Assembly (NCBI GenBank): GCA_963662445.1
Contig: OY759590.1
Location: 2,560,249 to 2,624,248, forward strand
DNA: 64,000 nt
Direction of reading: 5' to 3'
From: Desulfarculia bacterium
GTDB taxonomy: Bacteria > Desulfobacterota > Desulfarculia > Adiutricales > JAGVGV01
The stretch's first letter is position 1; each line of letters starts with the position of its first letter. The translations under genes and the position numbers were made by a program. The notes below the pieces were generated by a model. The model worked only from the letters and a program-made list of their open reading frames with translations. It did not search any database and was not told where the DNA came from. Shown here piece after piece: positions 4,156-51,699 of the stretch.

Positions 4156-4217
4156 TCAAGTGTGCAGCCGGAAGGCGGCCCGCGGCTCCGAGCCGCCTTG
4201 CCGGGCTGAGAGATAAT

Positions 4218-4943
4218 ATGCCGCAGGACAACAAGAAAAAGGATTCAGGCCGCAAAATCGCCATCGTCCAGTCGAATTACATCCCCTGGAAAGGTTATTT
4301 CGACATGATCGCCGCCGTGGATGAGTTCATCCTTTACGACGACATGCAATATACGAGGCGCGATTGGCGCAACCGCAACCAGATCAAGACGCCCAAAGGG
4401 CAACAATGGCTTACAGTTCCGGTCAAGGTAAAAGGTAAATATTATCAGACGATCCGCGAAACTGAAATTGATTGCACCAATTGGGCCCAAAAGCACTGGG
4501 CTACGCTTGCACTGAACTACCGCCGTGCCCCTCACTTTAAAGAAATATCCAGTATATTCGAACCATTGTATCTCGATTGCCCGCATATTTACCTGTCTGA
4601 GCTCAACCGGTCATTTATCGAGACGGTGTGCGCCTGTCTGGGTATTACCACGAAAATAAGCAATTCATGGGATTATGACCTGGTCGAGGGCAAGACCGAG
4701 CGGCTGGTCGACCTGTGCACCAAGGCTGGAGGGACGGAATATATCTCCGGCCCGGCGGCCAAGGATTATATCGAGGAGAAGTGTTTTGAGGAAAAAGGGA
4801 TAAAACTGACCTGGTTCGAATATGATGGCTATCCCGAGTATCCCCAATTGTGGGGGGATTTCATCCATGGGGTGACCATCCTGGACCTGCTGTTCAACTG
4901 CGGCCCGGATGCGCCCAGATACATGAAATACGTGCGCCCATGA
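4218..4943 (+). CDS. WbqC-family protein (unknown function, found in glycan clusters)
   Basis: IAIVQSNYIPWKGYFDMI..ILYDDMQYTRRDWRNRNQIKT matches my recollection of the WbqC-like family. The start was taken at the internal ATG 4218. Confidence 0.72.
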   Translation: MPQDNKKKDSGRKIAIVQSNYIPWKGYFDMIAAVDEFILYDDMQYTRRDWRNRNQIKTPKGQQWLTVPVKVKGKYYQTIRETEIDCTNWAQKHWATLALNYRRAPHFKEISSIFEPLYLDCPHIYLSELNRSFIETVCACLGITTKISNSWDYDLVEGKTERLVDLCTKAGGTEYISGPAAKDYIEEKCFEEKGIKLTWFEYDGYPEYPQLWGDFIHGVTILDLLFNCGPDAPRYMKYVRP

Positions 4944-5869: not shown

Positions 5870-6488
5870 AATAATAACAGAAGTGGCAGAGTATTATTCT
5901 GCCAAACTTGCCGAGCATGGCCGGACGCCTCGGGGCGTAGACTGGAACGGCGAAGAAAGCCAGAGATTACGTTTTTCTCAACTAACCAAGGTAATTAACG
6001 AGACAAGCGGGTTCTCTCTCAATGACATAGGCTGCGGCTACGGTGCGCTATATGACTATTTGCAAGAGAGGTATTGCGATTTTATTTACAGAGGCTGCGA
6101 TGTTTCTTTTGATATGATTCGTGCGGCTGGAGAACGCTGGGCTGACAGTTCAGGCGTTTTTTTTGCCGTGGCTGCCGAACCTGCGAATTTTGCGGACTAC
6201 GGAATAGCCAGTGGCATTTTTAACGTGAGATTAGGGTATAGCGACGCAGAGTGGCTTGAGTATATGACGGAGATAATTGGTATTATGGACAAAACCAGCA
6301 GAAGGGGATTCGCCTTTAATTGTCTGACATCATATTCTGATGCAGATAAGAAGAAAGATTATCTTTACTATGCCGATCCCTGCGCCATGTTTGACTTCTG
6401 TAAAAAGCATTATTCACGCCAAGTTGCGCTGTTGCACGACTATGGTCTTTATGAGTTTACAATTCTGGTGAGGAAACACTCATGGTAA
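5850..6488 (+). CDS. class I SAM-dependent methyltransferase
   Basis: Motif I-like LNDIGCGYGALYDYL. Overlaps the previous gene by 20 nt. Confidence 0.65.
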   Translation: MAKKTTEIITEVAEYYSAKLAEHGRTPRGVDWNGEESQRLRFSQLTKVINETSGFSLNDIGCGYGALYDYLQERYCDFIYRGCDVSFDMIRAAGERWADSSGVFFAVAAEPANFADYGIASGIFNVRLGYSDAEWLEYMTEIIGIMDKTSRRGFAFNCLTSYSDADKKKDYLYYADPCAMFDFCKKHYSRQVALLHDYGLYEFTILVRKHSW

Positions 6489-7147
6489 ACCAGTTAGTCA
6501 TTTTTGGTGCGGGCGATATCGCCCAACTGGCCCATTACTATTTTACTACTGATTCCGACTATGAAGTTGTTGGTTTTACTGTGGATTCTGCCTACATCAA
6601 GTCGCAGAAGTTTTGCGGACTTCCGATCATACCATTTGAAGAGGTGGCAGAGACTTATCCGCCTGATAATTATACTATATTTGTTGCCCTGAGTTATTCC
6701 AAACTTAATCAAATCCGCAAGCAAAAATACCTTGATTCCAAGGCATTGGGGTATCGCCTTGCCAGTTATGTCAGTTCCCATGCCACGGTTCTTAATGATG
6801 GTAGAGTTGGGGATAACTGCTTTATTCTTGAAGACAACACTGTACAACCATTCGTCACTATCGGCAACAACGTTACTTTGTGGAGCGGTAACCATATAGG
6901 GCATCATTCCACAATAGAAGACCATTGTTTTTTGGCGTCCCATATTGTGGTTTCCGGGGGGGTGGAAATCGGCGAAGCCAGTTTCATTGGTGTTAATGCC
7001 ACACTGCGGGACCATATCAAGGTCGGGGAACGTTGCGTCATCGGCGCAGGAACGTTGATACTCTCGGATGCGGAGCCTGGAAGTGTGTACATTGGACGGG
7101 CTACGGAACGGGCCGAGATATCCAGTGACCGGCTGAAAAGATTGTGA
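6482..7147 (+). CDS. NeuD/PglD-type hexapeptide-repeat sugar acyltransferase
   Basis: N-terminal Rossmann-like LVIFGAGDIAQLAHYY..EVVGF followed by left-handed beta-helix hexapeptide repeats (IGNNVTLWSGNHIGHHSTIEDHCFLASHIVVSGGVEIGE). Confidence 0.8.
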   Translation: MVNQLVIFGAGDIAQLAHYYFTTDSDYEVVGFTVDSAYIKSQKFCGLPIIPFEEVAETYPPDNYTIFVALSYSKLNQIRKQKYLDSKALGYRLASYVSSHATVLNDGRVGDNCFILEDNTVQPFVTIGNNVTLWSGNHIGHHSTIEDHCFLASHIVVSGGVEIGEASFIGVNATLRDHIKVGERCVIGAGTLILSDAEPGSVYIGRATERAEISSDRLKRL

Positions 7148-7158
7148 GGGACTAAGTC

Positions 7159-8070
7159 TTGCATTGGAAGAAACTGGGACTGATCTATTGTCCAGAGCCC
7201 ATTCATCCTAAGCTGATCACGCATGCCGCCAATCCACTGCCGGTTTTGCTTGAAGGAGACGTATACCGTGTCTTTTTTAGTGGGAGAGACGTGGAGAACC
7301 GGTCTTCGGTAGGATTTGTTGATATGGATTTGGTCAAACGTAAGGTTATTTATGTACATGACAGACCCGTATTCACACATGGCGATGAAAACAGTTTTTT
7401 CTCCCATGGCGTTAGCATTGGGAATTGCTATACGGTGAAAGGGACCCATTTTATTTTGTTTATGGCTTGGCAATGCCCGGCGGGCAGGCATTGGCGTGGG
7501 GTAGTCGGCAGATTGGTTCTCCATGACGACTGCTCTATGACCCTAGATGGTGATCGCCCGTTCATGGAGACGGATGAGACCGATCAGGTCAGCATTTCTT
7601 ACCCCTGGGTCATCCAGGATGAAGATGGACTCTATAGAATGTACTATGGTTCTACTGTTTCTTGGGATACGGGCAACGGAGAGATGTTGCATGTGATCAA
7701 TCAGGCGAGTTCGGTTGATGGGAATCAATGGAAACGTGAAGGGCTGGCAGTGCCGTACTGTATTGGTGTGGCTCAGGCATTTTCTCGACCGACTGTTGTT
7801 GGTAATAAGAATAATGGATATCACATGTGGTTTTCCTATAGGAGTGGTGCGGGAACCACATATCGTATTGGTTATGCTTTCAGTTCAGATGGCAATGTTT
7901 GGGACATTGATTTAGAAAAAGTCGGCATTGATGTTTCCCCATCAGGTTGGGATTCCGAGATGATTGAATACCCCTTTGTTATTGATCATAAAGGCCAAAG
8001 ATACATGCTCTATAATGGGAATCATTATGGTAAGACAGGATTCGGGATTGCCGTATTGAATAATGACTAA
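7159..8070 (+). CDS. predicted five-bladed beta-propeller protein (GH32/43/130-like fold), function unknown
   Basis: 303-aa ORF with repeated W/Y-rich strand motifs (YRVFFSGRD, YRMYYGST, YHMWFSYRS, YMLYNGNHY). TTG start. The family assignment is from memory only. Confidence 0.45.
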   Translation: MHWKKLGLIYCPEPIHPKLITHAANPLPVLLEGDVYRVFFSGRDVENRSSVGFVDMDLVKRKVIYVHDRPVFTHGDENSFFSHGVSIGNCYTVKGTHFILFMAWQCPAGRHWRGVVGRLVLHDDCSMTLDGDRPFMETDETDQVSISYPWVIQDEDGLYRMYYGSTVSWDTGNGEMLHVINQASSVDGNQWKREGLAVPYCIGVAQAFSRPTVVGNKNNGYHMWFSYRSGAGTTYRIGYAFSSDGNVWDIDLEKVGIDVSPSGWDSEMIEYPFVIDHKGQRYMLYNGNHYGKTGFGIAVLNND

Positions 8071-8265
8071 TTTCCTGGAACAACACACTACTGAACTGAG
8101 TATACTCAACATAATTTGATCATTCAGTCTGGGGAAAAATGCTGATCGCGTCATCACGTAGCCATTGAATGATGTTGACCTCTTTCACTACTCAGTGCTG
8201 TAGGTGACGATGTGTTGTTAAAAAAATCAAAAATTAGTGCGTTCAATATTGAGGAGAATTTGTCG

Positions 8266-8636
8266 ATGAACAACCGATTGCTGGATCATTTATATTTCCT
8301 TTTTACGATAAGCCTAACTTCATATGGCCTTTCAATTATAAAATGGCGTATTGCCAAAGTGGGCGTTTTACCACAGGAGATGATACCCAAACTACGTTTC
8401 CTGTTGCAGATGTTTCTATATCCGCTTGTATTAGTCCGGCTATATCGCGGCCTTTTTGGCTGGCTTGGCCTGGCTGGCGGCCATGACAAAATTTGATCTT
8501 AGCTACGGCTATCCGTTTATGGGTTTGAATTTCGTGGCAGTGCTTTTACTCATCGGCATTTTTCTTGGAGAGTCCATTACCCTGACTAAGGTGGCAGTTG
8601 GTAAATCTTTGTTTAGAAATACCGTATTGGAGTAAT
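8266..8636 (+). pseudogene. frameshifted small 4-TM EamA/ArnE-ArnF-like flippase subunit
   Basis: Frame 1 (MNNRLLDHLYFLFTISLTSYGLSIIKWRIAKVG..) parallels the downstream paralogue up to about 8431-8437. Homology then continues in another frame (SGYIAAFLAGLAWLAAMTKFDLSYGYPFMGLNFVAVLLL..) to the TAA at 8634-8636. Confidence 0.6.
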
Positions 8637-8644
8637 ATCAAATC

Positions 8645-9019
8645 ATGTCGCGTTTTATTGATTATCTCTATATTTTTTCTACAGTGGGTTTTACAGCTTA
8701 CGGGCAAATAGTCATTAAGTGGCGTATCGTCAAATTCGGCCCAATGCCACCGGACTTGCTGGAAAAGGTAAAATTCCTGATATTACTTATCGTTGATCCC
8801 GTGATCTTTTCCGGTTTTGCGGCTGCATTTCTGGCTTCCCTCGCGTGGATGGCCGCCATGACCAAATTTGAACTTAGCCATGCGTATCCTTTCATGAGCC
8901 TGAATTTCGTTATTGTCCTGCTTTTGAGTGGGTGGCTTCTGAAAGAACCATTGTCGATACCCCGTATAGCGGGCGTGGGGTTGATTGTGCTGGGAACTGT
9001 GGTGGCAGCCCGTGGCTGA
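8645..9019 (+). CDS. small 4-TM EamA/ArnE-ArnF-like flippase subunit
   Basis: 124 aa with four hydrophobic segments. It is a paralogue of 8266-8636. It lies downstream of an ArnC-like GT2 and upstream of GT-C candidates. Confidence 0.62.
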   Translation: MSRFIDYLYIFSTVGFTAYGQIVIKWRIVKFGPMPPDLLEKVKFLILLIVDPVIFSGFAAAFLASLAWMAAMTKFELSHAYPFMSLNFVIVLLLSGWLLKEPLSIPRIAGVGLIVLGTVVAARG

Positions 9020-10343
9020 ATATTATCTGTCTACGGAGGAATACAGGCAGATTTCAGCGAAACCGACCAATAGATATCTTGGTAGATATTTGCCACTTTT
9101 AATTCTGATTTTGGCAACTGCCATATTCTGGGGACCGGTAAAATATAAATTGATCGTGCTCATGAAAGTGCCTTTTGTCGACTATAAACAACATATTGAT
9201 ATTGCACTAAAGTTTGCTGAATGTGGAGAAATAAAGATACCATACTTCCTCTTTCATGTCATTACCGCAGGCATTCATTGGCTAACAGGCTTGGAGATTC
9301 GCTTGTCGGCCTATCTGTCTGATATGATGGCCATCATTTTGACCGCAGTTATTATGTTTCATTTTATTACTTCTGAGATTCCATCAGAGCACCTTTTTAA
9401 AGGCAGGCTGGTCGCTATTCCCATGACTTTCTTCGCTTTACTTTTTGCCCCTATTGCGTTCAACGGCTTTATGTCGAGCGCGCCTCTTGGCTCATGGTTG
9501 AGATATTTGTCATTTTACACCGGTTATTTTCATAGTGCCAATATATATCACAACCCGACTTTGTTGATGTTAAAACCAATCGCATTGTTATTATTCTGGA
9601 AATATGCTGCCATTATCAGTAAGTTTTATGCTCCGGACACACGACAGTTTAGTTTGCGTTCTGGCTTGGTAATGGTCTTGCTAATTATCTTTAACGCATT
9701 AGCTAAGCCTAATCTGTTAATCTGCTTTCTGCCAACTGTAACTATGACAATTCTCTATTTTTTTGTGATGGCTTTAAAATGTCGAGGAAATTATGCGTCT
9801 TCATTTTTCCTGTCAAGAATTAAATTCATAATATTATACGCATTTGGACCAACATTTATCGTTTTGTTAATTCAATACGCTTTCATGTTTCTAAATATAT
9901 TTGATTTGGATATAAAAGATGTTAGCCTAAAATTTGCTCCATTTGCTGTACTTGCTAACAACTTCACGTTAATATCCTTTGGGGCCAATTTTACTCTATC
10001 TGTTGCCTTTTTGATGTCTGTATATTTACTATTTCGTATGAAATTTGTTCGAAATATTTACACAATATTGGCGACTGTTCTCACTGTTGTAGGATTACTA
10101 TATGTCATACTATTTGCGGATTATATTAACCATAAGCTATCCAACGCTGGAAATCTATTTTGGAGTCTTCAGATCACACTTTTTATCACCGTCGCTGTTA
10201 CTATGAAATTTATGACTCATAATATGGTCAACTTTCACCAGCTGTCACCCCGAGATAGAACCCTTACCTTGATATCATTGACTATTTTGTCCATTCATAT
10301 TTTTTCCGGACTGTATTGGTATATTTCACTTCTTCACATTTAG
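8985..10343 (+). CDS. polytopic membrane protein, candidate GT-C glycosyltransferase or polymerase
   Basis: 452-aa, very hydrophobic, AT-rich ORF with at least 10 predicted helices by eye. No diagnostic motif was recognised. The start is uncertain (35-nt overlap with the upstream gene). Confidence 0.4.
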   Translation: MCWELWWQPVAEYYLSTEEYRQISAKPTNRYLGRYLPLLILILATAIFWGPVKYKLIVLMKVPFVDYKQHIDIALKFAECGEIKIPYFLFHVITAGIHWLTGLEIRLSAYLSDMMAIILTAVIMFHFITSEIPSEHLFKGRLVAIPMTFFALLFAPIAFNGFMSSAPLGSWLRYLSFYTGYFHSANIYHNPTLLMLKPIALLLFWKYAAIISKFYAPDTRQFSLRSGLVMVLLIIFNALAKPNLLICFLPTVTMTILYFFVMALKCRGNYASSFFLSRIKFIILYAFGPTFIVLLIQYAFMFLNIFDLDIKDVSLKFAPFAVLANNFTLISFGANFTLSVAFLMSVYLLFRMKFVRNIYTILATVLTVVGLLYVILFADYINHKLSNAGNLFWSLQITLFITVAVTMKFMTHNMVNFHQLSPRDRTLTLISLTILSIHIFSGLYWYISLLHI

Positions 10344-10357
10344 GGTTAATATACTCT

Positions 10358-11893
10358 ATGACACAATCAGCACTGCCCTCATTAAGGAATTACTGCCGGA
10401 ACTTAATATCCATGTTGGGATCGATTTCTCGCGGAATCGAGTCGGCCATGCTTGCTTTTGCCGCAGTTGTTTGTGCTTATCTGTTTGTATTTGTAATAAA
10501 TGATATTTCAATATGGGACTATTCACCATTCGAAAGCGATGCCATTTCTTATCTACTTCAAATTCGCTCTGCGGCGCATTATGGATTAGCCTCTGGTGCT
10601 TACGGAATCCAGGAATTTGCGGCATGGTTTTCACCTTCACCATTTGGAGTTCATGGCCCTCAATTTCCCTTGTCCTATGGCACCATTTTGGCGCCGTTCT
10701 CGTGGACAGATGCAAATCCATTGTTGCTGAATCATATTCTCTTTGGCCTTGCTCTATTTTATTTTTTAACCCGCTATAATGCCGGTAATTTAGATAATCT
10801 TCTATTTACCATATTTGCTGTTACATACTGGCCTATAAGCCTGATGCTGTCCATATGCATGCAGGAAGCTTTTTTAGGTTCTTTGGCCTTGGTTAGTTGT
10901 GGATTTTTGTACAAAAAAGATACAAGTAGACGTGGTTTCTGCTTTTCAATGGTTTGCTCAATATTTTCTGGCATTACCCGTCCGCTATACGCTTTCTATT
11001 TAGTAGCTGTGACGCTTCCTGGACCAGTGAAAACCTGGAAACGGGCAATTATCTTATTGGTCGGCATCGGGTGCAGTCTTGTTTTGTCTATGTTAGTTTT
11101 TTGGATGCTTTCTGCCTCGCCAGATTCTCCTTTTGCGACAGGACCTTCTCAAGAGAGAATCAGTCCAGTTATAGGTGATTTTATTCAGAGTAAAATAACC
11201 AATGGAGGCCAAAATCTTCTTGAGAATGTAAAAAGGTCTTGGATATTATTGGGATCATATACTGTTGAGTCGCATCTCATTTTTGTTTCTGTCATTTTGG
11301 TAGTTTTCCTAATTTGTTTTTCTGTGCCTAATCCATTACAAAGTGATGAGTTTCCATTGCTCATTATATTCTTATGGGCAATTATTATAAATATGATATT
11401 CTATAGAGTTCAAGGCTACATATTCTTCAGAATGATAGGTCCTGTGGTATTATTTTTATCGCCTTTTATATTAAGAAAGCGTATAGTAATTATCTCTCTA
11501 ATCATCATCAATTTTATATATCTTCCGGCGGCAGACGATTTCGTCAAGAATTATAGAGCACGTTCTTTTGTTATAGATTCAAACCATACCAATTTAAGAG
11601 GGATCAGAGAAATACTGTCACAGTTATCATTTGATCCTTTAGGAGATCGCTGGGATAATTCGATAGCAATTATAGATTCTCCAGAATTACTGCGCTATTT
11701 GCCCAGTTTACCGGTAGGATTTGGCTTTCATGTCTTTCGCAAGTTCAAAAAATCATACCAGCCAAAATGTCGCTACATCCTTGCAAAAAGAAAAGTAGTG
11801 ATAGAAGTATTGTCAGATGATAAAATACACAGTATAGCTGATGGTTATGTGCTCTACGACTTAAGAAAACTGGAACCACATCATGCGCGATGA
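10358..11893 (+). CDS. polytopic membrane protein, candidate GT-C (ArnT/PMT-like) glycosyltransferase
   Basis: About 511 aa. The first loop after TM1 carries an acidic motif (WDYSPFESDAISY) reminiscent of the GT-C catalytic loop. It has many TM segments and a soluble C-terminal tail. Confidence 0.45.
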   Translation: MTQSALPSLRNYCRNLISMLGSISRGIESAMLAFAAVVCAYLFVFVINDISIWDYSPFESDAISYLLQIRSAAHYGLASGAYGIQEFAAWFSPSPFGVHGPQFPLSYGTILAPFSWTDANPLLLNHILFGLALFYFLTRYNAGNLDNLLFTIFAVTYWPISLMLSICMQEAFLGSLALVSCGFLYKKDTSRRGFCFSMVCSIFSGITRPLYAFYLVAVTLPGPVKTWKRAIILLVGIGCSLVLSMLVFWMLSASPDSPFATGPSQERISPVIGDFIQSKITNGGQNLLENVKRSWILLGSYTVESHLIFVSVILVVFLICFSVPNPLQSDEFPLLIIFLWAIIINMIFYRVQGYIFFRMIGPVVLFLSPFILRKRIVIISLIIINFIYLPAADDFVKNYRARSFVIDSNHTNLRGIREILSQLSFDPLGDRWDNSIAIIDSPELLRYLPSLPVGFGFHVFRKFKKSYQPKCRYILAKRKVVIEVLSDDKIHSIADGYVLYDLRKLEPHHAR

Positions 11894-12149
11894 AAAATTA
11901 CCAATACAAATATGATTCAGAAAATAGAGTAGGTGTGTAAGGTGGTATGGGCAACGCTTAAGCGATTTATTCAGCGGAATTTAAAGAAAGATACCTAGTG
12001 AGGCATAGGGAGGCACGTAGATTCTACGTGCAGGCTGCTCCTCGTTTTTATAAAGGGGCAGGAGTGAGAATCCGCTGAATCTGATGATTATTTTTGTGGG
12101 CGCCCGGAAGTTTATGGAAACGCTATGGGATGTTTTCCTGGATAGACCG

Positions 12150-12480
12150 GCTCGGTTATGGCTGATGCACGGAAATCAGGATTTCAATGGAAGGAAAAGG
12201 GACGATTGGGCACGTCACAATCGAACGGCTCTGGTTGTCCCTGAAGTGTGAATGCCTCTAACTGCATGCCTTGGAGACTTGCTACCAGGCCAGGAAAGGC
12301 ATCGGAGACTGGCTTGATTACTACAACCAGAGCCGGCCCCACTCCAGTCTGGACGGCATGACCCGGATGAGGCATACTGGGGCCTGTCTGAGATGCGGAG
12401 AACTGAAGCGGCGGCATGAAAACAACCCAAGCCATCCACCTTAAGAAAGCCGCCATTATGTCCAAACAATGGGGACCACC
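12150..12480 (+). mobile_element. IS3-family transposase (OrfB) 3' remnant
   Basis: Translates as ..EIRISMEGKGTIGHVTIERLWLSLKCECL*LHALETCYQARKGIGDWLDYYNQSRPHSSLDGMT, then a frameshift, then ..HLKKAAIMSKQWGPPL. This is the conserved integrase C-terminus, with one in-frame TAA and one missing C. No 5' part and no inverted repeats were identified. Confidence 0.75.
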
Positions 12481-12630
12481 TCTTTGTGGCGCGCAGGCAA
12501 GGGGGCTTTTCAGGTCTGGCCAACTTCTGGAGTTTAGGGCAAAAAGGTCTTAACGTGATAGAATCAGGGAAACAATTCTGTCCCTCAAAACAAGGCAGGT
12601 AGGCCATTGCGCGGAGCAAGGTTAAAAAAA

Positions 12631-13770
12631 ATGAACGAATTCGTCCCTTTCAACAAACCATATATCGCAGGCAAGGAGCTGTATTACATTGCTCAGGCCG
12701 TTATCAGCAACAGCCGCATATCCGGTGACGGACCCTTCACAAACCTGTGCCAGAAATGGCTGGAAGACAATCTGAACTGCCGGAAGGTTCTGCTGACTCA
12801 TTCCTGTACGGCCGCGCTGGAGATGAGCGCCTTGCTCTGCGGAATCGGTCCCGGTGACGAAGTCATCATGCCTTCGTTCACCTTTGTCTCCACGGCCAAT
12901 GCCTTTGTTCTGCGCGGCGCGGTTCCGGTGTTTGTGGATATCCGTGAGGACGACCTGAACATTGATGAGAACCTGGCGGCCGACGCCGTTACCCCGAGGA
13001 CAAAAGCCATTGTGCCGGTGCATTATGCGGGTATTCCGTGTGATATGGAGGCTATCGTCAGCCTGGCCCGGAGCCGGGGATTGCGAGTCATCGAGGATGC
13101 GGCTCAGGGGCTGCTTTCAAAATACCAGGAACAGTATCTGGGAACGATCGGCGATCTGGGGTGTCTGAGCTTCCACGAAACAAAGAACATAATCAGCGGA
13201 GAAGGCGGGGCCCTGCTGATCAATGACCCGGAACTGCGGGAGAGAGCCGAAATCATCTGGGAGAAGGGCACCAACCGGAAACGGTTCTTCCGCGGCGAGG
13301 TGGACAAGTATACCTGGGTGGATGTGGGCTCATCGTATCTGCCCAGCGATATCATTGCGGCCTTTTTGTTCGCCCAACTGGAGATGGCTGAGACCATAAT
13401 ATCCGCCAGACGCAACATTTTTCGGCGCTATCTGGATGGGCTGGGGGGCCTTGAAGCGAAAGGCTGCATCAGGCTGCCGTTTATCGGCCAGAATGGAACC
13501 GGCAATGGGCATATAATGTATATCCTGACGGAGTCACTTGCGGCCCGCACCAGACTGATCGAGCACCTGAACAACCGCGACATCAAATCGGTATTCCATT
13601 ATGTCCCGCTGCATTCATCGCCCATGGGGGAGAAATGCTGCCGCACTTATGGACCAATGAAAGTGACAGACAGTATCAGCGACCGCCTGCTTCGTTTGCC
13701 CATGTTCTATGAAATGTCGCACGATGATGTTGACCGGGTTGTTCAGGCTTTATGTGATTTTTATGAATAG
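12631..13770 (+). CDS. wecE: dTDP-4-amino-4,6-dideoxygalactose (dTDP-4-keto-6-deoxyglucose) transaminase
   Basis: Near-colinear with my recollection of E. coli WecE/RffA: FNKPY..GKEL.Y, LLTHSCTAALEMSALL, GDEVIMPSFTFVSTANAFVLRGA, FHETKN, EKGTNR..FFRGEVDKYTWVDVGSSYL, FHYVPLH, RLLRLP. Confidence 0.9.
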   Translation: MNEFVPFNKPYIAGKELYYIAQAVISNSRISGDGPFTNLCQKWLEDNLNCRKVLLTHSCTAALEMSALLCGIGPGDEVIMPSFTFVSTANAFVLRGAVPVFVDIREDDLNIDENLAADAVTPRTKAIVPVHYAGIPCDMEAIVSLARSRGLRVIEDAAQGLLSKYQEQYLGTIGDLGCLSFHETKNIISGEGGALLINDPELRERAEIIWEKGTNRKRFFRGEVDKYTWVDVGSSYLPSDIIAAFLFAQLEMAETIISARRNIFRRYLDGLGGLEAKGCIRLPFIGQNGTGNGHIMYILTESLAARTRLIEHLNNRDIKSVFHYVPLHSSPMGEKCCRTYGPMKVTDSISDRLLRLPMFYEMSHDDVDRVVQALCDFYE

Positions 13771-13874
13771 GAATTCATGACGGGTTCCATAGGTATTCTG
13801 TCTGTTGAATAATCACGGCTGTTGCGGTTCTACTGAAGTGACTGCCCGGATTAGACCGGTTAAGGATAATATTG

Positions 13875-15998
13875 ATGACTAAGCCCAATATTTCAACCGC
13901 CAGGTGGCTGGCTCTGCAAATATTTCTGTTCGCATTATACTTCGCTCTGTCATGCCTTTACTATCACTTCTATTTGACCAATGAATACACGCCTGGTGGT
14001 GATGGAGGCAGGATATATACCTACTTGAAGTACATGGAGAAGGTTCCCGAGATCATCCCTTTCTGGCAGGCTCATAAATATCATGGTTATCCTCTCCTGG
14101 CCGATCCGGAAAATCACATGCTGTGGAGTCTTTTTCTTGATACGGAATCACCTTATTTCAATATTCAACTTAATATGGTTTTTTTCACACTGACAGCGGT
14201 GTTCGCCTTCTGCTGCCGCGGTATCGGCAGAATACTTGGTTTTTCCGAAGTGGCTGCTTTCGCTGTTGGCCTTGTTTCAATCAGTTGTGTGCCTATGGTG
14301 AGAGTGTTCATGCATGGGTCGTTGTCCTCACTGCAGCCTACGGTTTTTATTTATGTTTCCATATTCATGATATTGTATTTTGTACAGAGCCAAAATACCA
14401 AGTCTGTCTTACTGTTATTGATCTCATCTCTGCTTATGGCGGCAGCCTTAGTCACCACAGGATATTACTTTCCTTTGGCGGCTTTTCCGCCATTGGTTAT
14501 AGGACTGTCCTGTCTGTATCTGAGCAAAGAAACAAGGGCTAGGCAGATCGCTGCCCGCATATTTGTAGTCTTGTCCATCATCTCGGTTTTGACTCTTTTG
14601 TTTTCTCTTCCTTTGGTTTTGCCGGTTATTGACGGAGTTGTTTCGTCCCGGATATTTTTCTCGGATTCTCCCGTCATTAATGTCACTGATGCCCCATTAT
14701 ATAATTTTTATCTTGGACTTTGGCCTTTCATATTGCTGGCTGTTATCTATGCCAGGGGAACTCTCAGGCGCTGTGCAACATTGTTTGCGATTTTGGGAAG
14801 TGTCAATTTAATTCTTATCTTATTGGAAATTGCCGGTTGTGCCCTGTTTTTTGACGTTTGGTCTCAGATACCAATTCTGCGGAATATACGCTGGCAACAT
14901 CCGTTTACCGAGTTGGCCAGCATCGGAGCTGCGTTCTGCCTGGGTATATATCTTGATGCAAGTAGGACAAAGGAGGCTATAGAACCACCACAGACAAAAT
15001 TTGTTCTGATTGGGGGATTTTGTCTACTGATGGCAGTTCTGGCCTTTGGGCAATATCAAAATGGGGATGAATACCATCAGATTGTTATCAGTCTTCTTTT
15101 CATTTTGGTAGCCCTGGTCGGTAGAAGATTTAGAATTGCTTTGTCTCTATCTCTGGCAATATTGCTGCTTATGATCGTTAATTTTGAAAAGTGTCCTCTG
15201 GGAAATCAGCTTTATAAGGCCACCAATTCGCAAAAAATCCAGACATATGTTGGACCATACAGATGGATGGGGGGGTACGGATACGACGAATTTACCCCCA
15301 GTTTCGCTTATGGCAAGTATTCAATGGTTTTTATTAAAGAATACAGAAACATACTGTCGGTAATGACCGGTGTTGAGATTATGGCTCAGCGCCCGCATTG
15401 GGTAGGACTTTATGAAGAAATTGACGAGACCAAGGTAAACAAGAGAGTGGAACGCCTTATGGCTATAGATAATCCAGTCAGAAAGAAAGCGAAACGTAAA
15501 GACAGGAAGAATTACAAAATAAGGCCTTTCAGGGTGTATGACCGGTGGGTCGTTCTCGACGACGAGAACGCTTTAAAGATGATGACGGATGGAACTTTTT
15601 CGGTCAATGGTCCAATAATTTTGGCTCAGGAGCCACCCTTTGAAAAAGACGCCAATAAAAGGAAGTTAAATTGGGATGCTAAATTAACCGGAAAGACCGC
15701 AGATACATTGACTTTGCATGTAAAAACGGACAGGAACAGTATCTTATTTATACCAGAGATATATCATCGAGATTGGACCGCGGAGGTGGATGGCGAAAGG
15801 GCTCCTGTAATCAAGGCCTACGCTTCAATGCGCGCAGTACCAATCGGATCGGGGGAACATACGATTGTCCTGCGGTTTGTTTACCGGCCATTTTACTGGG
15901 GCTTGGCCATTTCGGGATTCATGTTATTTTTCTCTTTCTTATTACTGCTTGTTTTTCGAGATAAGGTACATCGCTACTTGAGTTTTCAACCTCTGTAG
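13875..15998 (+). CDS. YfhO-family (GT-C) membrane glycosyltransferase
   Basis: About 707 aa with many N-terminal TM helices, a soluble domain, and a C-terminal block DWTAEVDGERAPVIKAYASMRAVPIGSGEHTIVLRFVYRPFYWGLAISG followed by a final TM. This matches the YfhO C-terminus as I remember it. Confidence 0.62.
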   Translation: MTKPNISTARWLALQIFLFALYFALSCLYYHFYLTNEYTPGGDGGRIYTYLKYMEKVPEIIPFWQAHKYHGYPLLADPENHMLWSLFLDTESPYFNIQLNMVFFTLTAVFAFCCRGIGRILGFSEVAAFAVGLVSISCVPMVRVFMHGSLSSLQPTVFIYVSIFMILYFVQSQNTKSVLLLLISSLLMAAALVTTGYYFPLAAFPPLVIGLSCLYLSKETRARQIAARIFVVLSIISVLTLLFSLPLVLPVIDGVVSSRIFFSDSPVINVTDAPLYNFYLGLWPFILLAVIYARGTLRRCATLFAILGSVNLILILLEIAGCALFFDVWSQIPILRNIRWQHPFTELASIGAAFCLGIYLDASRTKEAIEPPQTKFVLIGGFCLLMAVLAFGQYQNGDEYHQIVISLLFILVALVGRRFRIALSLSLAILLLMIVNFEKCPLGNQLYKATNSQKIQTYVGPYRWMGGYGYDEFTPSFAYGKYSMVFIKEYRNILSVMTGVEIMAQRPHWVGLYEEIDETKVNKRVERLMAIDNPVRKKAKRKDRKNYKIRPFRVYDRWVVLDDENALKMMTDGTFSVNGPIILAQEPPFEKDANKRKLNWDAKLTGKTADTLTLHVKTDRNSILFIPEIYHRDWTAEVDGERAPVIKAYASMRAVPIGSGEHTIVLRFVYRPFYWGLAISGFMLFFSFLLLLVFRDKVHRYLSFQPL

Positions 15999-16115: not shown

Positions 16116-17303
16116 ATGGCTGATATATTGATATTGGGCGGAGATGGTTATCTGGGCTGGCCCACGGCCATGTATTTTTCCAGTCAAGGGCATAGCGTGA
16201 CCGTGGCCGATAACTATTTTCGGCGCAACGCCTGCACTGAGCTGGATGTCGGCATGCTCTACCAGGTGCCTACACTTGCCAACCGAGCGAGGCTCTGGTA
16301 CGAGTTGACCGGCCGGGAGATAAAGGTCGTCGTCGGCGATCTGAGCGATGCAGAAGTCATGCGTTCATTCTTCGACGGCAGGGTTAAGTATCAATGGGCT
16401 GTCGACTCAGCTTTCAAAGGCGCACCCGAGGCGGTAGTCCATTATGCCGAGCAGCCATCGGCACCGTACTCGCTTATAGATTACAAATACGCCAATTTCA
16501 CTCTGACCAACAACCTTCTGGTTACCAATAACCTCATGTTCGCGGTGCGTGATTTTTCCCGGGAAACTCACATTATCAAGCTGGGAACCATGGGGGAATA
16601 CGGGACGCCCAATATTGATATTGAAGAAGGCTGGTTAGAGATTGAGCATAAGGGCCGGAAAGGCAGATTTTTGTTTCCCAGGCAGGCAGGTTCGTTGTAC
16701 CATACCACAAAGGTCATGGATACCGACCTGCTGTGGTTTGGTGTGCGCATGTGGGACCTTAGGGTCACAGACCTCATGCAGGGCCCTGTCTACGGCCTGG
16801 AGACAGAAGAATCGGCCGCCGATCCTCGGTTGCGGACCATATTCAATTATGACGAAGTGTTCGGCACAGTGCTGAACAGGTTCATCACCCAGGCTGTGGT
16901 GGGATATCCTTTGACGGTCTATGGCCAAGGCGGCCAGACCAGGGGATACCTGAACATCAAGGACACATTGCAGTGTGTGGGCAAGTCTCTTGAGACGCCG
17001 GCCGGAAAAGGCGAGCTGCGGATATTCAATCAGATCATGGAAACATTCAGTGTTTCCGAGCTGGCTGAATTGACGAAGAAGGTCGGTGATGCTCTTGGGT
17101 TTGATGTGGAGATCAAAAGCATCGATAACCCGCGGAAGGAAGCGGAAGAGCATTATTACAATCCTACCTATCAGGGGCTGGTGGATATTGGGGTTGAGCC
17201 ACATTACCTGACCGAAGAGGTCATGAAAGGCATGTTCCGGATCGTGGCCGAACACCGGGACAGTATCAGGCGCGATGTGATTTTCAGAGGGATTAAGTGG
17301 TGA
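16116..17303 (+). CDS. sqdB: UDP-sulfoquinovose synthase
   Basis: Long identical strings to plant SQD1 / bacterial SqdB as recalled: ILGGDGY.GWPTA, KLGTMGEYGTPNIDIEEG, GGQTRGYL.I.DT.QCV, FNQ..E.FSV.ELA, NPR.EAEEHYYN, G.EPHYL. Confidence 0.9.
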   Translation: MADILILGGDGYLGWPTAMYFSSQGHSVTVADNYFRRNACTELDVGMLYQVPTLANRARLWYELTGREIKVVVGDLSDAEVMRSFFDGRVKYQWAVDSAFKGAPEAVVHYAEQPSAPYSLIDYKYANFTLTNNLLVTNNLMFAVRDFSRETHIIKLGTMGEYGTPNIDIEEGWLEIEHKGRKGRFLFPRQAGSLYHTTKVMDTDLLWFGVRMWDLRVTDLMQGPVYGLETEESAADPRLRTIFNYDEVFGTVLNRFITQAVVGYPLTVYGQGGQTRGYLNIKDTLQCVGKSLETPAGKGELRIFNQIMETFSVSELAELTKKVGDALGFDVEIKSIDNPRKEAEEHYYNPTYQGLVDIGVEPHYLTEEVMKGMFRIVAEHRDSIRRDVIFRGIKW

Positions 17304-17308
17304 AGGTA

Positions 17309-18007
17309 ATGGCCAATTTTATATCCCGATTATCTGCTTCATATAACTGGCTAAAACGAAAGAGAGTCCGAAGGCCATGGCCGGAAGGTGAGGCAGGATT
17401 AAAAAAACGTGACCATAGGCGAATGGTTGGGGCTCGATGGGATGAACTCGGGCCTTTACAGTTTAATTTCATGACTGAAGTGGCTGGATTAAAGCCGGAT
17501 GATATTTTTTTGGAGATATCCTGTGGATCATTCCGGGCAGGGCGCTTCTTTATACAATATCTTAATGAAGGTAATTACTTAGGTATTGATAAGCAAGAAG
17601 TTCTAGTGAGGGAAGGCAAGCAACATGAAATACCTGCCCATATATGGAACGATAAAAAACCAGAAATAGTTATATCCGGTGAGTTTGATTTTAATAAGTT
17701 TTCGAAAACACCTGGGCTATCATTGGAGCAATCTCTTTTCACACATCTTACACCAAGAGATATCATAAAATGTCTAAGAAAACTTTCTCAATATGTAAGT
17801 TCATGCCATCGTTTCTATGCTACATTCAATGAAACAGATACGCCGCCATATTATATATTACCATCACATTCTAGTCGTTTCGACTATTCTTTTAAGCAAA
17901 TTGCAACTTGGGGGAAACGTTATGGATGGGATTGTACTTACATTGGGAGCTGGGGGCATCCACTTGATCAGAAGATGATAATGTTTGAGAGAAAGGATGA
18001 GCATTGA
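17309..18007 (+). CDS. putative SAM-dependent methyltransferase-like protein
   Basis: FLEISCGSFRAGRFFIQYL..YLGIDK resembles motif I / post-I of class I methyltransferases. AT-rich. The start is 17309 ATG or 17297 GTG. Confidence 0.4.
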   Translation: MANFISRLSASYNWLKRKRVRRPWPEGEAGLKKRDHRRMVGARWDELGPLQFNFMTEVAGLKPDDIFLEISCGSFRAGRFFIQYLNEGNYLGIDKQEVLVREGKQHEIPAHIWNDKKPEIVISGEFDFNKFSKTPGLSLEQSLFTHLTPRDIIKCLRKLSQYVSSCHRFYATFNETDTPPYYILPSHSSRFDYSFKQIATWGKRYGWDCTYIGSWGHPLDQKMIMFERKDEH

Positions 18008-24035: not shown

Positions 24036-24099
24036 TGAAAGATAGACAAAGACAAGGCCTTTAGCATAGCAAATTCAATAATGCAAATTGGTGAGGAGT

Positions 24100-25116
24100 A
24101 TGTTAGAATATTGTAATATATTGATTACAGGTGGCTGCGGATTTATTGGGACATCAATAGTAGATAGAATTAATAGACTGTACAGTGGAAAGAAGGTATT
24201 AATTCTAGACAATTTTGTTACTGGAACTCCAAAAGATCTGGCTGAGGTGGCAAGTTTTAAAACGGCTTCAAGCGGTGATTGGCCAACGAAAGAAGGAATA
24301 ACACTGGTCAAAGGAGATATACGTGATAAGGATTGTGTTATGCAGTGTTGTAAGGGGGTCGACTGTATTATACATCTAGCGGCGAATACTGGAGTTGGCC
24401 CATCAGTTCAAAATCCATCGTTGGACATGGAATGCAATGTTGTCGGAACATTTAATTTATTGGAGGCGGCTAGATTAAATAATGTAAAAAAGTTCATATT
24501 TGCTTCTTCGGGAGCACCTGCCGGGGAAGTTGAACCACCTATACACGAAGAGTTACCTCCACATCCTGTATCACCCTATGGAGCGAGTAAATTGGCTGGA
24601 GAAGGATACTGTTCAGCTTACTACAGAACTTTTGGGTTGCGAACAATTTGTTTAAGATTCGGCAACGTATATGGTCCCAGGTCAAAGAAGAAGTCAAGCG
24701 TGGTGGCAAAATTCATCAGGCAGGCCTTGGCTGGAGAAGAGTGCGTTATATTTGGCGATGGAACACAAACCAGGGACTTTATTTATATTGATGATTTAGT
24801 AGGTGCTGTCTTGCTGGCAATGCACAAGGATGTGGGGGGGGAGACTTTTCAAATTGCCACAGGCCTGGAATGTACGGTAAGTGAGATTGCAGAATTAATT
24901 CAAAAAAAGATGCATAAAAACGGAATAGATATGAAAATTGTTTATGATAATCCGCGAATGGGAGACGTAAGACGTAACTTTGCAGATACAACAAAAGCCA
25001 AAATTGGTTTAGGCTGGACTGCTGCTGTGCCACTGGAAGAGGGATTAGAGAAAACACTATCATACTTTTTAGATATTGCTGTTAGTGACCAGAACAAGGA
25101 GATGACCGATGACTGA
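24100..25116 (+). CDS. NAD-dependent sugar-nucleotide epimerase/dehydratase (extended SDR)
   Basis: ILITGGCGFIGTSIV and the YGASKLAGE catalytic YxxxK. Substrate is not assignable. The start is ambiguous (24088 TTG or 24100 ATG). Confidence 0.85.
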   Translation: MLEYCNILITGGCGFIGTSIVDRINRLYSGKKVLILDNFVTGTPKDLAEVASFKTASSGDWPTKEGITLVKGDIRDKDCVMQCCKGVDCIIHLAANTGVGPSVQNPSLDMECNVVGTFNLLEAARLNNVKKFIFASSGAPAGEVEPPIHEELPPHPVSPYGASKLAGEGYCSAYYRTFGLRTICLRFGNVYGPRSKKKSSVVAKFIRQALAGEECVIFGDGTQTRDFIYIDDLVGAVLLAMHKDVGGETFQIATGLECTVSEIAELIQKKMHKNGIDMKIVYDNPRMGDVRRNFADTTKAKIGLGWTAAVPLEEGLEKTLSYFLDIAVSDQNKEMTDD

Positions 25117-26410
25117 TAACCAGACTAAAGATGTAGTTGTGGTATTAAGCGCCGGCAGGTCTGGTACGTCTTTACTTATGAATGTCATGAACAGGTTGGG
25201 GATGGAGCTTTCCGAGGAGATGATTCCTGGAAGGTACGGAAATCCGGATGGTTATTTTGAAGATTCTGAAATAGTTCAGATACACCAGAATTTAATTAAA
25301 GATATTTCCGCAAAGGCTAATCTGCCACTCCCAGATAACTGGCTATTGAATGAAAAGGTAAAAAGTGCTGTACCCAAACTTAAGACGATATTGAAAGATC
25401 GTCTTCAAAAATGTAACGGAACATGGGGGTTTAAAGATCCTCGTACTTCGGTGTTGTTGCCTTTATGGCTAAGAGTTTTCAATTCCGCAGTAGTAAATCC
25501 GATTTTTGTCCTGGCCATAAGACATCCAGCGGCAATGGTAGTTTCAATGCGCCGCATCGTAGACAATGACGATACGGTAACAGAACTACAATGGCTTCAC
25601 CGCACATGTGAAGCTCTGTATAACACTTCCGGCGATTGCTACATCGTTCATTATGAAGACTGGTTTAGAAGAGGGGAAGAAATAGCTGGTGAGCTACTTA
25701 ATTACACCGGTCTGGAAAATAGTTTTGGGGAAAAAGACATTAGCGATGCGCTGCGGGGACTGATAAAAGACAATTTGAACCGTTCAGTCTATGAAGATTA
25801 TGACATACAGAACAAGTATGTAGCTATGTTATATGAGAGCCTACAAAATTGTCGGGGCAAGGATTTTGATCGTTCGAAGTTGATGGAGACCGTGAAAGAA
25901 TGTCGGAATGCTATTCACGGTTTTAAGGGGTGGTACCAATTGGCTCTGGAGGCCGGGAGCGATAAGAACCAGGAAAACGTTAATAAGATAAAGAAACTAG
26001 AAAATGAGCTAAAGGACAAAGAAGAGAAGCAATCCGCCAGAATAGAAGAACTTGAGATTGATGTTGCTAAAAGTGTATCAAATTGCAATAGTTATTTACA
26101 TAAGATAAAGGATCTGGAGGATGAAGTCTGCCATTTGAGAATAAGAGTTACAGCCCTGGCTTTGGCCTCTACTAACAACGCCTCTGAAAGTGGTAGACAG
26201 TCCAAAGGTATTGTAAGCGGCTTAGACTATGAATTGAACAGGTGTCGTTGCGAGTTGCGGGCTATGAGATCTTCAGTCACCTATAGAACAGGCTATTTCG
26301 TTGTAAAAGCGTTCTCTAAGCCGGGGAAAAACACAATTTTGCTTCCTTACCGGCTGATCCGGATTTTTCTAAAACACCTGGCCACACGAAAACGGAAAGT
26401 AATAACTTGA
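25109..26410 (+). CDS. sulfotransferase-family protein with C-terminal coiled coil and basic amphipathic tail
   Basis: 5'-PSB-like VVLSAGRSGTSLLMNVM, 3'-PB-like GFKDPRTS and AIRHPAAMVVSM. Residues about 285-350 show heptad-like K/E/L-rich sequence (NKIKKLENELKDKEEKQSARIEELEIDVAK..IKDLEDEVCHLRIRV). The last ~40 aa are basic and hydrophobic. Confidence 0.72.
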   Translation: MTDNQTKDVVVVLSAGRSGTSLLMNVMNRLGMELSEEMIPGRYGNPDGYFEDSEIVQIHQNLIKDISAKANLPLPDNWLLNEKVKSAVPKLKTILKDRLQKCNGTWGFKDPRTSVLLPLWLRVFNSAVVNPIFVLAIRHPAAMVVSMRRIVDNDDTVTELQWLHRTCEALYNTSGDCYIVHYEDWFRRGEEIAGELLNYTGLENSFGEKDISDALRGLIKDNLNRSVYEDYDIQNKYVAMLYESLQNCRGKDFDRSKLMETVKECRNAIHGFKGWYQLALEAGSDKNQENVNKIKKLENELKDKEEKQSARIEELEIDVAKSVSNCNSYLHKIKDLEDEVCHLRIRVTALALASTNNASESGRQSKGIVSGLDYELNRCRCELRAMRSSVTYRTGYFVVKAFSKPGKNTILLPYRLIRIFLKHLATRKRKVIT

Positions 26411-26468: not shown

Positions 26469-27251
26469 ATGCTACAACTCACACGCAATTTGCGCGATTA
26501 CCGCAACGCTTTGGTGATTCAGTTCTGGGTCAACATCAGAACAACTGTTGCTGCGACAAGACTCGGTGTCCTATGGTGGATTCTTGATCCGCTCATGCTC
26601 ATGATGATTTATTATTTTGTTATAAAGATTGTTTTTAACCGCGGCGGGCCGGGTTACCATTTTTATGCACTTTGTGGAATTGTGACATGGCAATCTTTTT
26701 CGCGATCTCTGACTCAGTGTACAAACGCACTGATTGGCAATTCTGCGTTAATTAAACAAGCTGTTCTGCCGATAGATCTTTATGTTTTGTTGCCCCCTAT
26801 TGTGCAGGCATTTTTTTATTTAATAGGTCTGGCTATAATAGCTATCTGGAACAATAATGTAGTGGGTTGGTATACTCCAACTGTTCTGGTATTGCTGATT
26901 CCGATGGTCCTTCTGCCATATGCTTTGGGGCTTTTTCTTGCAATACTGAGAACTAGATCTCCAGATTTGGGAAAATTTGTTCCTTATATATTAAGATTCG
27001 GGTTCTATTTCAGTCCTGTTTTGTACGGTCCAGAAAGAATTTATGATTTACACATACCGCAGCTATTTAAAACTTTATATTCTTTGAACCCTATGGTTCA
27101 CATCATAACTGCTGTGCGAGAAGTCTTGTTCGAGGGGCGTATGTTTGATTTGCGTCCGATATTATTGGTATCGATTGCCGCTATCTTATTAACACAGGCT
27201 GGACTTGTATTTTTCCGGCGATTTGCACCGTCAATTCCTAAGTATTTGTAA
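26469..27251 (+). CDS. wzm: ABC-2 type polysaccharide export permease
   Basis: 260 aa, six hydrophobic segments, ABC-2 (Wzm/TagG/KpsM-like) layout, immediately upstream of a Wzt-type ATPase. Confidence 0.85.
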   Translation: MLQLTRNLRDYRNALVIQFWVNIRTTVAATRLGVLWWILDPLMLMMIYYFVIKIVFNRGGPGYHFYALCGIVTWQSFSRSLTQCTNALIGNSALIKQAVLPIDLYVLLPPIVQAFFYLIGLAIIAIWNNNVVGWYTPTVLVLLIPMVLLPYALGLFLAILRTRSPDLGKFVPYILRFGFYFSPVLYGPERIYDLHIPQLFKTLYSLNPMVHIITAVREVLFEGRMFDLRPILLVSIAAILLTQAGLVFFRRFAPSIPKYL

Positions 27252-29321: not shown

Positions 29322-29329
29322 CATTCAGG

Positions 29330-50203: not shown

Positions 50204-50231
50204 AATCTGTTGTGAGGAGAGTCTTATACCA

Positions 50232-51638: not shown

Positions 51639-51653
51639 TCCGTGAAAAAATTG

Positions 51654-51685: not shown

Positions 51686-51699
51686 AGTATCTCTGCGGA

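Follow-up and report, generated by a model that had tools for sequence, protein, structure and literature searches.

The stretch analysed here, referred to below as the window, comprises 64,000 nucleotides of contig OY759590.1 (positions 2,560,249 to 2,624,248) from the Desulfarculia bacterium assembly GCA_963662445.1. Between about 2.2 and 32.3 kb it carries a glycan locus, and within this locus lies the gene that concerns us, sqdB, whose product resembles the uridine diphosphate (UDP)-sulfoquinovose synthases SQD1 and SqdB. The layout is operon-like, with one strand used from 12.6 to 32.3 kb, and a low-GC (guanine plus cytosine) island extends over about 8-28 kb (34-48% GC versus 51-63% outside). 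The coordinates (Table 1) confirm the gene order given in a preliminary description of this DNA, in which sqdB stands between the gene of a YfhO-type protein, ending 118 bp upstream, and a giant multi-glycosyltransferase gene, and upstream of wzm and wzt.

The sqdB open reading frame (ORF) encodes 395 residues from an ATG codon, with a good ribosome-binding site, GGAGG, 8 nt upstream. Residues 3-395 match the SQD1 chains 1qrr, 1i24 and 1i2b in a phmmer search of the PDB (E 2.5e-115 to 1.8e-114), the next family being UDP-glucuronate decarboxylase at E 1e-8. In a BLASTP comparison with Arabidopsis SQD1, 45% of the residues are identical and 65% score as positives, and the window protein has one insertion of 13 residues (residues ~88-102, before strand beta4), and the long identical blocks that the preliminary description had reported over the full length of the two proteins are indeed present, for example KLGTMGEYGTPNIDIEEG. 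A structure search with an AlphaFold2 model (predicted local distance difference test score, pLDDT, 74.6; predicted template modelling score, pTM, 0.81) returned SQD1 with a template modelling (TM) score of 0.86 and E 1e-37, and other short-chain dehydrogenases/reductases (SDRs) at TM scores of at most 0.67 and E 1e-15 or weaker; its active-site loops are not reliable, with pLDDT <50 at residues 113-124 and 159-193. In sequence and in fold the protein resembles SQD1 over its full length and stands clearly apart from other extended SDRs.

The nicotinamide adenine dinucleotide (NAD)-binding motif GxxGxxG reads GGDGYLG (residues 8-14), and the catalytic T145, Y182 and K186 of SQD1, together with H183, correspond to T158, Y195, K199 and H196 of the window protein. 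In an alignment of window SqdB, 80 fetched relatives and SQD1 (SQD1 numbering), residues H96, T145, M146, E148, Y149, S180, Y182, H183, T185, K186 and Q209 are conserved. The segment GTMGEYG is invariant in 28 close homologues and present in 77/81 relatives; it contains the family-specific [ST]-M-G-E-Y that replaces the TDE/SDK of dehydratases (PMC8987622). The importance of the conserved catalytic residues is documented (PMC4388408, PMC8987622): in Agl3, H95, M145, Y182 and K186 are essential, and E147 and Y148 are important (PMC4388408). Homology and conserved residues therefore place the window protein securely in the SQD1 branch of the superfamily, within which its sequence assigns it to a distinct subfamily, uncharacterised as far as the literature shows, that we refer to as the EQP subfamily.

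Thousands of homologues were found among about 5.8 billion proteins searched; the 120 best are 76-82% identical to window SqdB and come from sources including Gilvimarinus, Halomonas, Allochromatium, Rhodoferax, Accumulibacter, Desulfobacterales and the cyanobacterium Okeania. A scan with one genome per GTDB species gave at least 592 related stretches, mostly from non-phototrophs and many of these sulfate reducers, and no member of the subfamily was found in a plasmid collection (best match 47% identical). The best 80 of the at least 592 stretches were compared with 10-kb flanks, in which ORFs were called and clustered; they represent Desulfobacterota, Gamma-, Alpha- and Betaproteobacteria, Campylobacterota, Leptospirales, Verrucomicrobiota, Deferribacteres and Planctomycetota. 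SqdB proteins from classic contexts are 37-39% identical to window SqdB and served as controls: in Sinorhizobium meliloti (39%), whose SqdB has experimental grounding, sqdB is followed by a glycosyltransferase gene (SqdD), in Marinovum by a “glycogenin” (SqdD) and an “epimerase” (SqdC), and in Microbulbifer by a GT1-family protein gene (an sqdB-GT4 pair). All three keep Arg101 of SQD1. The view of the window gene as an oddly placed lipid gene did not hold, because the subfamily, judged by the 80 fetched relatives, normally resides in glycan loci.

SQD1 homologues of the Arg101 type also occur on plasmids of Agrobacterium (L088), Rhodococcus (L089) and Pseudonocardia (L084), among glycosyltransferases and methyltransferases and not beside SqdX or SqdD; the neighbours of the Rhodococcus homologue include an alkyl sulfatase and a SulP transporter. 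Contexts unrelated to lipid synthesis may be frequent throughout the SQD1 family.

A cassette consisting of sqdB, glycosyltransferase modules of types A and c3, a GalE/WbgU-like SDR (c2) and a sulfotransferase-like protein (c6), with or without Wzm/Wzt, was detected by tblastn in at least 11 species genomes of different classes: A. vinosum (L001), Gilvimarinus (L003), Rhodoferax (L004), Desulfosarcina (L007), Halomonas (L012), Arhodomonas (L013), two Pseudomonas (L014 and L015), Desulfocapsa (L016), A. warmingii (L048) and Histidinibacterium (L061). Identity to the window proteins is 59-69% for c2, 28-44% for c6 and 40-59% for Wzm, the last found in L007 and L013-L016. Cultivable carriers of the cassette include Allochromatium vinosum DSM 180, whose SqdB is 81% identical to that of the window, Gilvimarinus agarilyticus, Pseudomonas sp. 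AOB-7 and Idiomarina sp. MD25a. The cassettes of L012 and L014 lack c2. In 22 of 75 loci c2 directly follows sqdB, and in 43 of 75 the two are at most 10 kb apart. Modules that are fused in the large glycosyltransferase of the window are separate genes beside sqdB in the relatives.

The association was also examined in reverse, by scanning metagenome contigs with an alignment of twelve c3 modules. Sixteen loci had a c3 module at least 29% identical to that of the window, and of these 11 carried c2 (46-69% identity) and nine c6. Five of the nine close-c3 loci of at least 8 kb had an sqdB of the window subfamily, two of these five (L094 and L099) looking like the same contig; in the other close-c3 metagenome loci the contig is short or breaks off on the side that matters. 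Among 64 loci with a more distant c3, none had sqdB or c2 and one had c6. Many of these distant loci have wzm/wzt, and the c3 family at large therefore belongs to glycans exported by ATP-binding cassette (ABC) transporters, within which the window-like c3 branch travels specifically with sqdB, c2 and c6. The link of sqdB to glycan genes is not accidental. Cassette recurrence and the reverse search together mark the window gene, on the strength of sequence and gene order, as a typical member of a large SQD1-like subfamily at home in glycan loci, and not as a displaced lipid gene.

Table 1. Features of the glycan locus of the window (positions are those of the window)
Feature	Position	Strand	Basis or remark
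Second sugar module of the locus	2231..13770	+	nine rows below
RmlA	2231-3106	+	
RmlB	~3100-4155	+	
WbqC-like	4152-4943	+	
PgfS/ArnC-like polyprenyl-phosphate GT2	~4937-5869	+	
Methyltransferase-like	5850-6488	+	
NeuD/VioB-type acetyltransferase	6482-7147	+	
ORF, no assignment	7159-8070	+	
Two polytopic proteins, 452 and 525 aa	8985-10343, 10316-11893	+	
WecE-type aminotransferase	12607-13770	+	
Polytopic membrane protein, 708 aa, YfhO-like	13872..15998	+	PF09586, 35 bits; PgfM1/PgfM2
SQD1/SqdB-like NAD-dependent sugar-nucleotide sulfonating enzyme (predicted), EQP subfamily	16116..17303	+	homology, fold, residues
ORF, 236 aa, no family match	17297..18007	+	overlaps sqdB stop by 7 nt
Fused multi-glycosyltransferase, 1845 aa	18498..24035	+	Pfam, tblastn to loci, internal duplication, reverse test
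GalE/WbgU-like extended SDR (c2)	24088..25116	+	best PDB match 4zrm, E 4e-61
Sulfotransferase-like protein (c6)	25109..26410	+	Sulfotransfer_3, 26.3 bits (gathering score 27)
Wzm-type ABC-2 permease	26469..27251	+	PF01061 and galactan-export Wzm model
Wzt-type ATPase, nucleotide-binding domain at residues ~430-650	27318..29321	+	Wzt/TagH models
Glycosyltransferase, 987 aa: N-terminal GT2 and second c3-type module	29303..32266	+	

The fused glycosyltransferase comprises module A (residues 1-366), a GT4 domain (413-782), a module A' that is 40% identical to A by internal duplication (854-1219), and the C-terminal module c3 (1264-1845), made up of a PF13524-like part and a GT2 domain. It is a candidate for the polymerase that uses the sulfosugar. 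A match of this protein to Agl16 (46 bits, cut-off 575) was set aside as generic GT4 similarity without meaning. The c3-type module of the 987-residue glycosyltransferase is 31% identical to the one in the fusion. For c2, the solved relatives next after 4zrm are WbgU and WbpP, the best ones are 4-epimerases, and the motif ASSGA is not of the dehydratase type, making c2 a candidate UDP-hexose or UDP-sulfoquinovose 4-epimerase. The short ORF that follows sqdB has no homologue in the related loci, and its LEISCGSFRAG resembles, on our reading, an S-adenosylmethionine-binding motif.

The loop GxGRSGTS is invariant in sulfotransferase-like c6, which also shows the motif RxPxxxxxS; the middle of the protein looks like a coiled coil, and a basic helix closes its C-terminus. 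Among PDB entries, the c6 profile matched tyrosylprotein sulfotransferase at E 0.0016 and, less strongly, the CurM sulfotransferase at E 0.011. We regard c6 as a candidate chain modifier or terminator, a weak assignment. The basic helix at its tail, SKPGKNTILLPYRLIRIFLKH, has a closely similar counterpart, RKPGINTIRLPYLVFKHVMRK, at the end of an unrelated glycosyltransferase family (cluster c26; L016:12194-13270 and relatives) in the same cassettes, and this common tail may serve membrane or complex targeting. The Wzm permease and the Wzt ATPase are signs of an ABC-dependent pathway, the Wzt/TagH models matching at E 1e-57 to 1e-63, under their equivalog cut-offs. An N-terminal extension of about 400 residues in Wzt (window 27318-28600) has no family match and is kept in L014-L016, the loci of Pseudomonas and Desulfocapsa, with a full-length identity of 35-39%. 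Known carbohydrate-binding modules of Wzt proteins are C-terminal.

Upstream of sqdB, the match of the YfhO-like protein to YfhO/PgfM is limited to the C-terminal ~80 residues (35 bits, gathering score 28.5), and the protein is a candidate GT-C glycosyltransferase for periplasmic glycosyl transfer. The second sugar module is predicted from its genes to make a deoxythymidine diphosphate (dTDP)-4-acylamino-4,6-dideoxyhexose decoration, which would be added by way of a polyprenyl-phosphate sugar and a GT-C; its GT2 scores 174.6 bits against PgfS (cut-off 500) and 129 bits against ArnC. The pair of polytopic proteins at 8985-11893 occupies the lowest-GC part of the island (37-40%), with no Pfam match and no homologue in any fetched locus.

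The remainder of the window (33-64 kb) encodes histidine utilisation, an ABC importer, two-component and sigma-54 regulators, and corrinoid methyltransferases of MttB/MtgC type; the Hut, MttB/MtgC and sigma-54 genes suggest an anaerobic host and are not evidence of sulfate reduction. No genes for the supply of sulfite or of 3'-phosphoadenosine 5'-phosphosulfate were found in the window. A urocanate hydratase homologue (38649-40304), clustered with HutH, HutI, an amidase and the ABC importer, scores 790.9 bits with the NCBIfam model for S-methyl-thiourocanate hydratase (cut-off 880) and 714 with that for HutU (cut-off 375). Two MttB-family methyltransferases of the non-pyrrolysine type, an MtgC-like corrinoid protein and a methyl-tetrahydrofolate:corrinoid methyltransferase (50124-56222) suggest anaerobic demethylation of a quaternary amine. 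A 307-residue ORF at 33430-34353 has a GcvH-like lipoyl domain, under the family cut-off, in residues 138-253 only.

On balance we consider it probable, if by no means certain, that window SqdB makes UDP-sulfoquinovose for incorporation into an ABC-exported polysaccharide rather than into the lipid sulfoquinovosyl diacylglycerol (SQDG). By analogy with SQD1 and Agl3 (PMC4388408, PMC8987622), the enzyme, self-sufficient and of the SQD1 type, would oxidise C4 of UDP-glucose with its bound NAD+ and eliminate water; sulfite would then add to C6 of the resulting 4-keto-5,6-ene, and a final step would reduce C4. The resulting UDP-sulfoquinovose would be the donor for the 1845- and 987-residue glycosyltransferases with their c3 and A-type domains, which may build an undecaprenyl-linked polysaccharide, perhaps an O-antigen or a capsule, at the cytoplasmic face of the membrane. 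In this scheme c2 might supply a second hexose or epimerise part of the UDP-sulfoquinovose to UDP-sulfofucose, c6 might sulfate, modify or cap the chain, and Wzm/Wzt would export it, while the upstream dTDP-aminosugar, PgfS-like GT2 and YfhO-like GT-C genes could add a periplasmic decoration.

Several observations weigh against this assignment. Window SqdB reaches 405.9 bits, over its full length, with the NCBIfam equivalog model for UDP-sulfoquinovose synthase, NF041015, whose cut-off is 575, and no characterised member of the EQP subfamily was found in the searchable literature. The SQD1 segment EQRSAPYS reads EQPSAPYS in window SqdB and all 80 relatives, so that Pro114 of the window protein stands in place of Arg101, a residue that may correspond to the cofactor-contacting Lys84 of GalE. 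Further changes specific to the subfamily are L19M, F97Y, V211P, V288L and V337P, of which V211P adjoins Q209. In Agl3 the R101A substitution is inactivating (PMC4388408). No initiating phosphoglycosyltransferase or ligase was recognised among the window ORFs scanned; the search of the host for sqdX and sqdD covered the 64-kb window; and a dehydratase gene coupled to sqdB in most relatives, c0, suggests a shared pathway that may use a substrate other than UDP-glucose.

We rejected Pro101 as a decisive disqualification because the other functional residues are conserved, the subfamily is strongly constrained and a haloarchaeal (Natrinema) homologue has the same proline. The plasmid-borne homologues of Rhodococcus, Pseudonocardia and Agrobacterium keep the arginine, as do the three classic controls. 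The active-site check proposed in the preliminary description thus has a divided outcome: all other tested catalytic residues are kept, and one SQD1 residue, Arg101, is lost, which partly goes the way that the description had named as speaking against its prediction. Through this subfamily, what Arg101 contributes to SQD1-type catalysis can be tested directly.

A somewhat unlikely alternative keeps the logic of the locus and changes the sugar, which would be UDP-sulfofucose formed via c2, a 6-sulfo-6-deoxy-N-acetylhexosamine (HexNAc) where c0 is present, or the product of a nucleophile other than sulfite. The replacements R101P and V211P, subfamily-wide and beside substrate or cofactor positions, are in line with this, as is the conserved proximity of c2, whose solved relatives include 4-epimerases. 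In the searchable literature, sulfofucose is recorded from Fucaceae algae and Thermoplasma alone (PMC4388408, PMC12421959); it has no known bacterial source, yet it is catabolised by bacteria (PMC12421959). A point in favour of a changed substrate also comes from c0, a Polysacc_synt_2 protein of about 360 residues (for example L003:8929-9966 and L032:8434-9522, with others spread over L003-L082). It is encoded directly 5' of sqdB on the same strand in 59/76 loci with enough flank and within 5 kb in 67/76, the stop and start codons often overlapping by 4 nt, and forms a coherent subfamily (median identity 61%) whose divergence tracks that of sqdB (r = 0.42). It stays under the PseB and FnlA equivalog cut-offs, with 200-209 bits to FnlA/CapE. 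Its best solved relative, over the full length and at E 3e-83 to 5e-79, is 6bwc, deposited as CapD of Bacillus thuringiensis and presumably Pen, the UDP-N-acetylglucosamine 5,6-dehydratase of that organism.

However, c0 has the SDK...MxxxK motif of the complete 4,6-dehydratases CapE, FnlA and PglF, where 6bwc has SNA...YxxxK, and c0 plus c2 could therefore simply make an ordinary 6-deoxy-HexNAc. It was not found anywhere in the window or in the full cassettes L014, L015 and L016, and is therefore not an obligatory partner, an idea that we rejected; c0-less and c0-linked SqdB sequences are interspersed by identity. Two of the cassettes lack c2, the proline at the Arg101 position recurs in the haloarchaeal homologue, and no mention of a sulfoquinovosamine-type sugar was found in the searchable literature. 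For the sugar, UDP-sulfoquinovose remains the best reading, or else a closely related derivative, for instance sulfofucose. The earlier prediction of an exported glycan containing 6-sulfo-6-deoxyglucose accordingly survives in part: the link to an export locus recurs in at least 11 genomes, but the final sugar may not be plain sulfoquinovose, given the co-conserved c2 and the presence of c0 in most relatives.

Alternatively, a GT2 may place the sulfosugar on undecaprenyl phosphate, to be flipped and attached on the outside by the YfhO-like GT-C, in the manner of CsbB/YfhO or PgfS/PgfM. We hold this to be unlikely, even though sqdB directly follows the YfhO-like gene and the locus includes a PgfS/ArnC-like GT2. 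The Leptospirales locus L022 offers a parallel, sqdB being followed there by the gene of a 605-residue protein with multiple transmembrane segments, alongside the same GT2/WbqC/WecE module, so that the dTDP-aminosugar module of the window adjoins sqdB there as well. In five further loci (L068, L071, L073, L077 and L081) a DUF2304-GT2, of the polyprenyl-phosphate glycosyltransferase type, lies 3' of sqdB; these are 32-36% identical to one on the Natrinema versiforme plasmid pNVE414 (L087, 3962-8162), where the proline-bearing SQD1 homologue is followed by two SDRs and the DUF2304-GT2. This arrangement suggests a polyprenyl-phosphate-sulfosugar route common to bacteria and haloarchaea. The PgfS-like GT2 of the window, however, sits among the dTDP-aminosugar genes and is inherited together with them, as L022 illustrates, and is therefore more simply assigned to that sugar. 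Across genomes the strongest partners of the window sqdB lineage are c3, c2, c6 and Wzm/Wzt, not GT-C, and no YfhO homologue was found in the other cassette loci.

Should an SqdX- or SqdD-type enzyme encoded elsewhere make SQDG, the position of sqdB in a glycan locus would be incidental. Such an arrangement is conceivable, since in some cyanobacteria there is no linkage between sqdB and sqdX (PMC13436972) and the DNA inspected is 64 kb of a contig of about 4.8 Mb, but we consider it very unlikely. The preliminary description had recognised no SqdX- or SqdD-like gene, and tblastn of the window agrees, giving no homologue of SqdD (S. meliloti and Marinovum queries) or of SqdX (query, the GT4 of the Microbulbifer sqdB-GT4 pair). 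Neither type of gene stands beside sqdB in any of 81 loci, weak generic GT4 matches occurring far from sqdB in five of them. The glycan synteny is conserved and reciprocally confirmed, the classic SqdB proteins are distant, and surface-glycan clusters typically form low-GC islands like this one. Most improbable of all is a loss of sulfonation that would leave a UDP-glucose 5,6-dehydratase or another SDR-type sugar-nucleotide modifier: Agl3 makes UDP-glucose-5,6-ene without sulfite and is inactive as R101A (PMC4388408), and proline replaces this arginine throughout the subfamily, but the 76-82% identity across classes and phyla includes the SQD1-specific TMGEY and YHxxK (H183), and such strong purifying selection on SQD1-specific active-site loops argues for retained specialised chemistry.

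The current literature treats sulfoquinovose as a product of phototrophs, in the form of SQDG, and of a few archaeal N-glycans. Outside lipids it is known from Sulfolobus N-glycans (Agl3), with hints in haloarchaea, and the Agl3 paper remarks in passing that non-photosynthetic bacteria carry such genes (PMC4388408); a 2026 review of bacterial sulfoquinovose cycling considers the SqdB-SqdX route only (PMC13436972). In the searchable literature we found no bacterial polysaccharide (O-antigen, lipopolysaccharide or capsule) with a 6-sulfonated sugar and no report of this sqdB glycan cassette. As far as we found, then, the kind of enzyme is known, and the subfamily, its partners and the predicted class of product are new. 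The window is an ordinary member, and the interest lies in the subfamily, whose recurrence in many non-photosynthetic bacteria points to an undescribed class of sulfonated surface glycans.

If the proposal is right, the polysaccharides exported by hundreds of non-phototrophic species contain sulfonated sugars. They would then form a new class of anionic glycan on bacterial surfaces, which might affect phage and immune recognition and metal binding, and the organosulfur cycle of dark, anoxic habitats would gain a further input. The c3 modules would then be candidate sulfoquinovosyl- or sulfofucosyltransferases. More tentatively, it is possible that the EQP subfamily, in its at least 592 stretches, represents an unrecognised route to carbon-sulfur-bonded sugars for surface polysaccharides, which with its partners may lead to UDP-sulfofucose or, where c0 is present, 6-sulfo-6-deoxy-HexNAc, sugars not known from bacteria. 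The sulfoglycolytic and sulfofucolytic bacteria that live in soils and anoxic sediments would then have a source of sulfosugars that has so far been overlooked.

Among known systems, window SqdB shares with SQD1 and cyanobacterial SqdB full-length homology, the fold, GxxGxxG, T145/Y182/K186, His183 and TMGEY, and differs in having proline for Arg101 and for Val211 and an insertion of 13 residues; instead of an SqdX/SQD2 partner it has polysaccharide glycosyltransferases and an ABC exporter. The alphaproteobacterial SqdB of Rhodobacter sphaeroides and S. meliloti (sqdB-sqdD-sqdC operon) belongs to the same family and provides the bacterial genetic precedent for UDP-sulfoquinovose, but it keeps Arg101 and is followed by the GT8 protein SqdD and by SqdC, neither of which lies close to the window gene or to any of the 80 relatives. 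Agl3 of Sulfolobus acidocaldarius is the precedent for sulfoquinovose in a glycan, and its H95, M145, Y182 and K186 are kept in window SqdB; it is, however, archaeal, serves a dolichol-linked N-glycan pathway and needs the Arg101 that is proline in the window protein. The Pen/Pal system of B. thuringiensis resembles c0 through the full-length likeness to 6bwc, despite the different active-site motif, and c0 lies in an operon with an SQD1-like gene instead of pseudaminic-acid genes.

The locus as a whole can be compared with ABC-dependent O-antigen systems such as Escherichia coli O9a (WbdA/WbdD) and Klebsiella O12 (WbbB). Like these, it encodes Wzm/Wzt, very large multi-domain glycosyltransferases, a putative coiled-coil modifying enzyme just before wzm, which gives c6 its likeness to a terminator, and an extra domain in Wzt. 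Their terminators are a kinase/methyltransferase or a 3-deoxy-D-manno-octulosonic acid transferase, whereas the window candidate would have a sulfotransferase fold; the extra Wzt domain is N-terminal in the window, and the predicted donor sugar is sulfonated.

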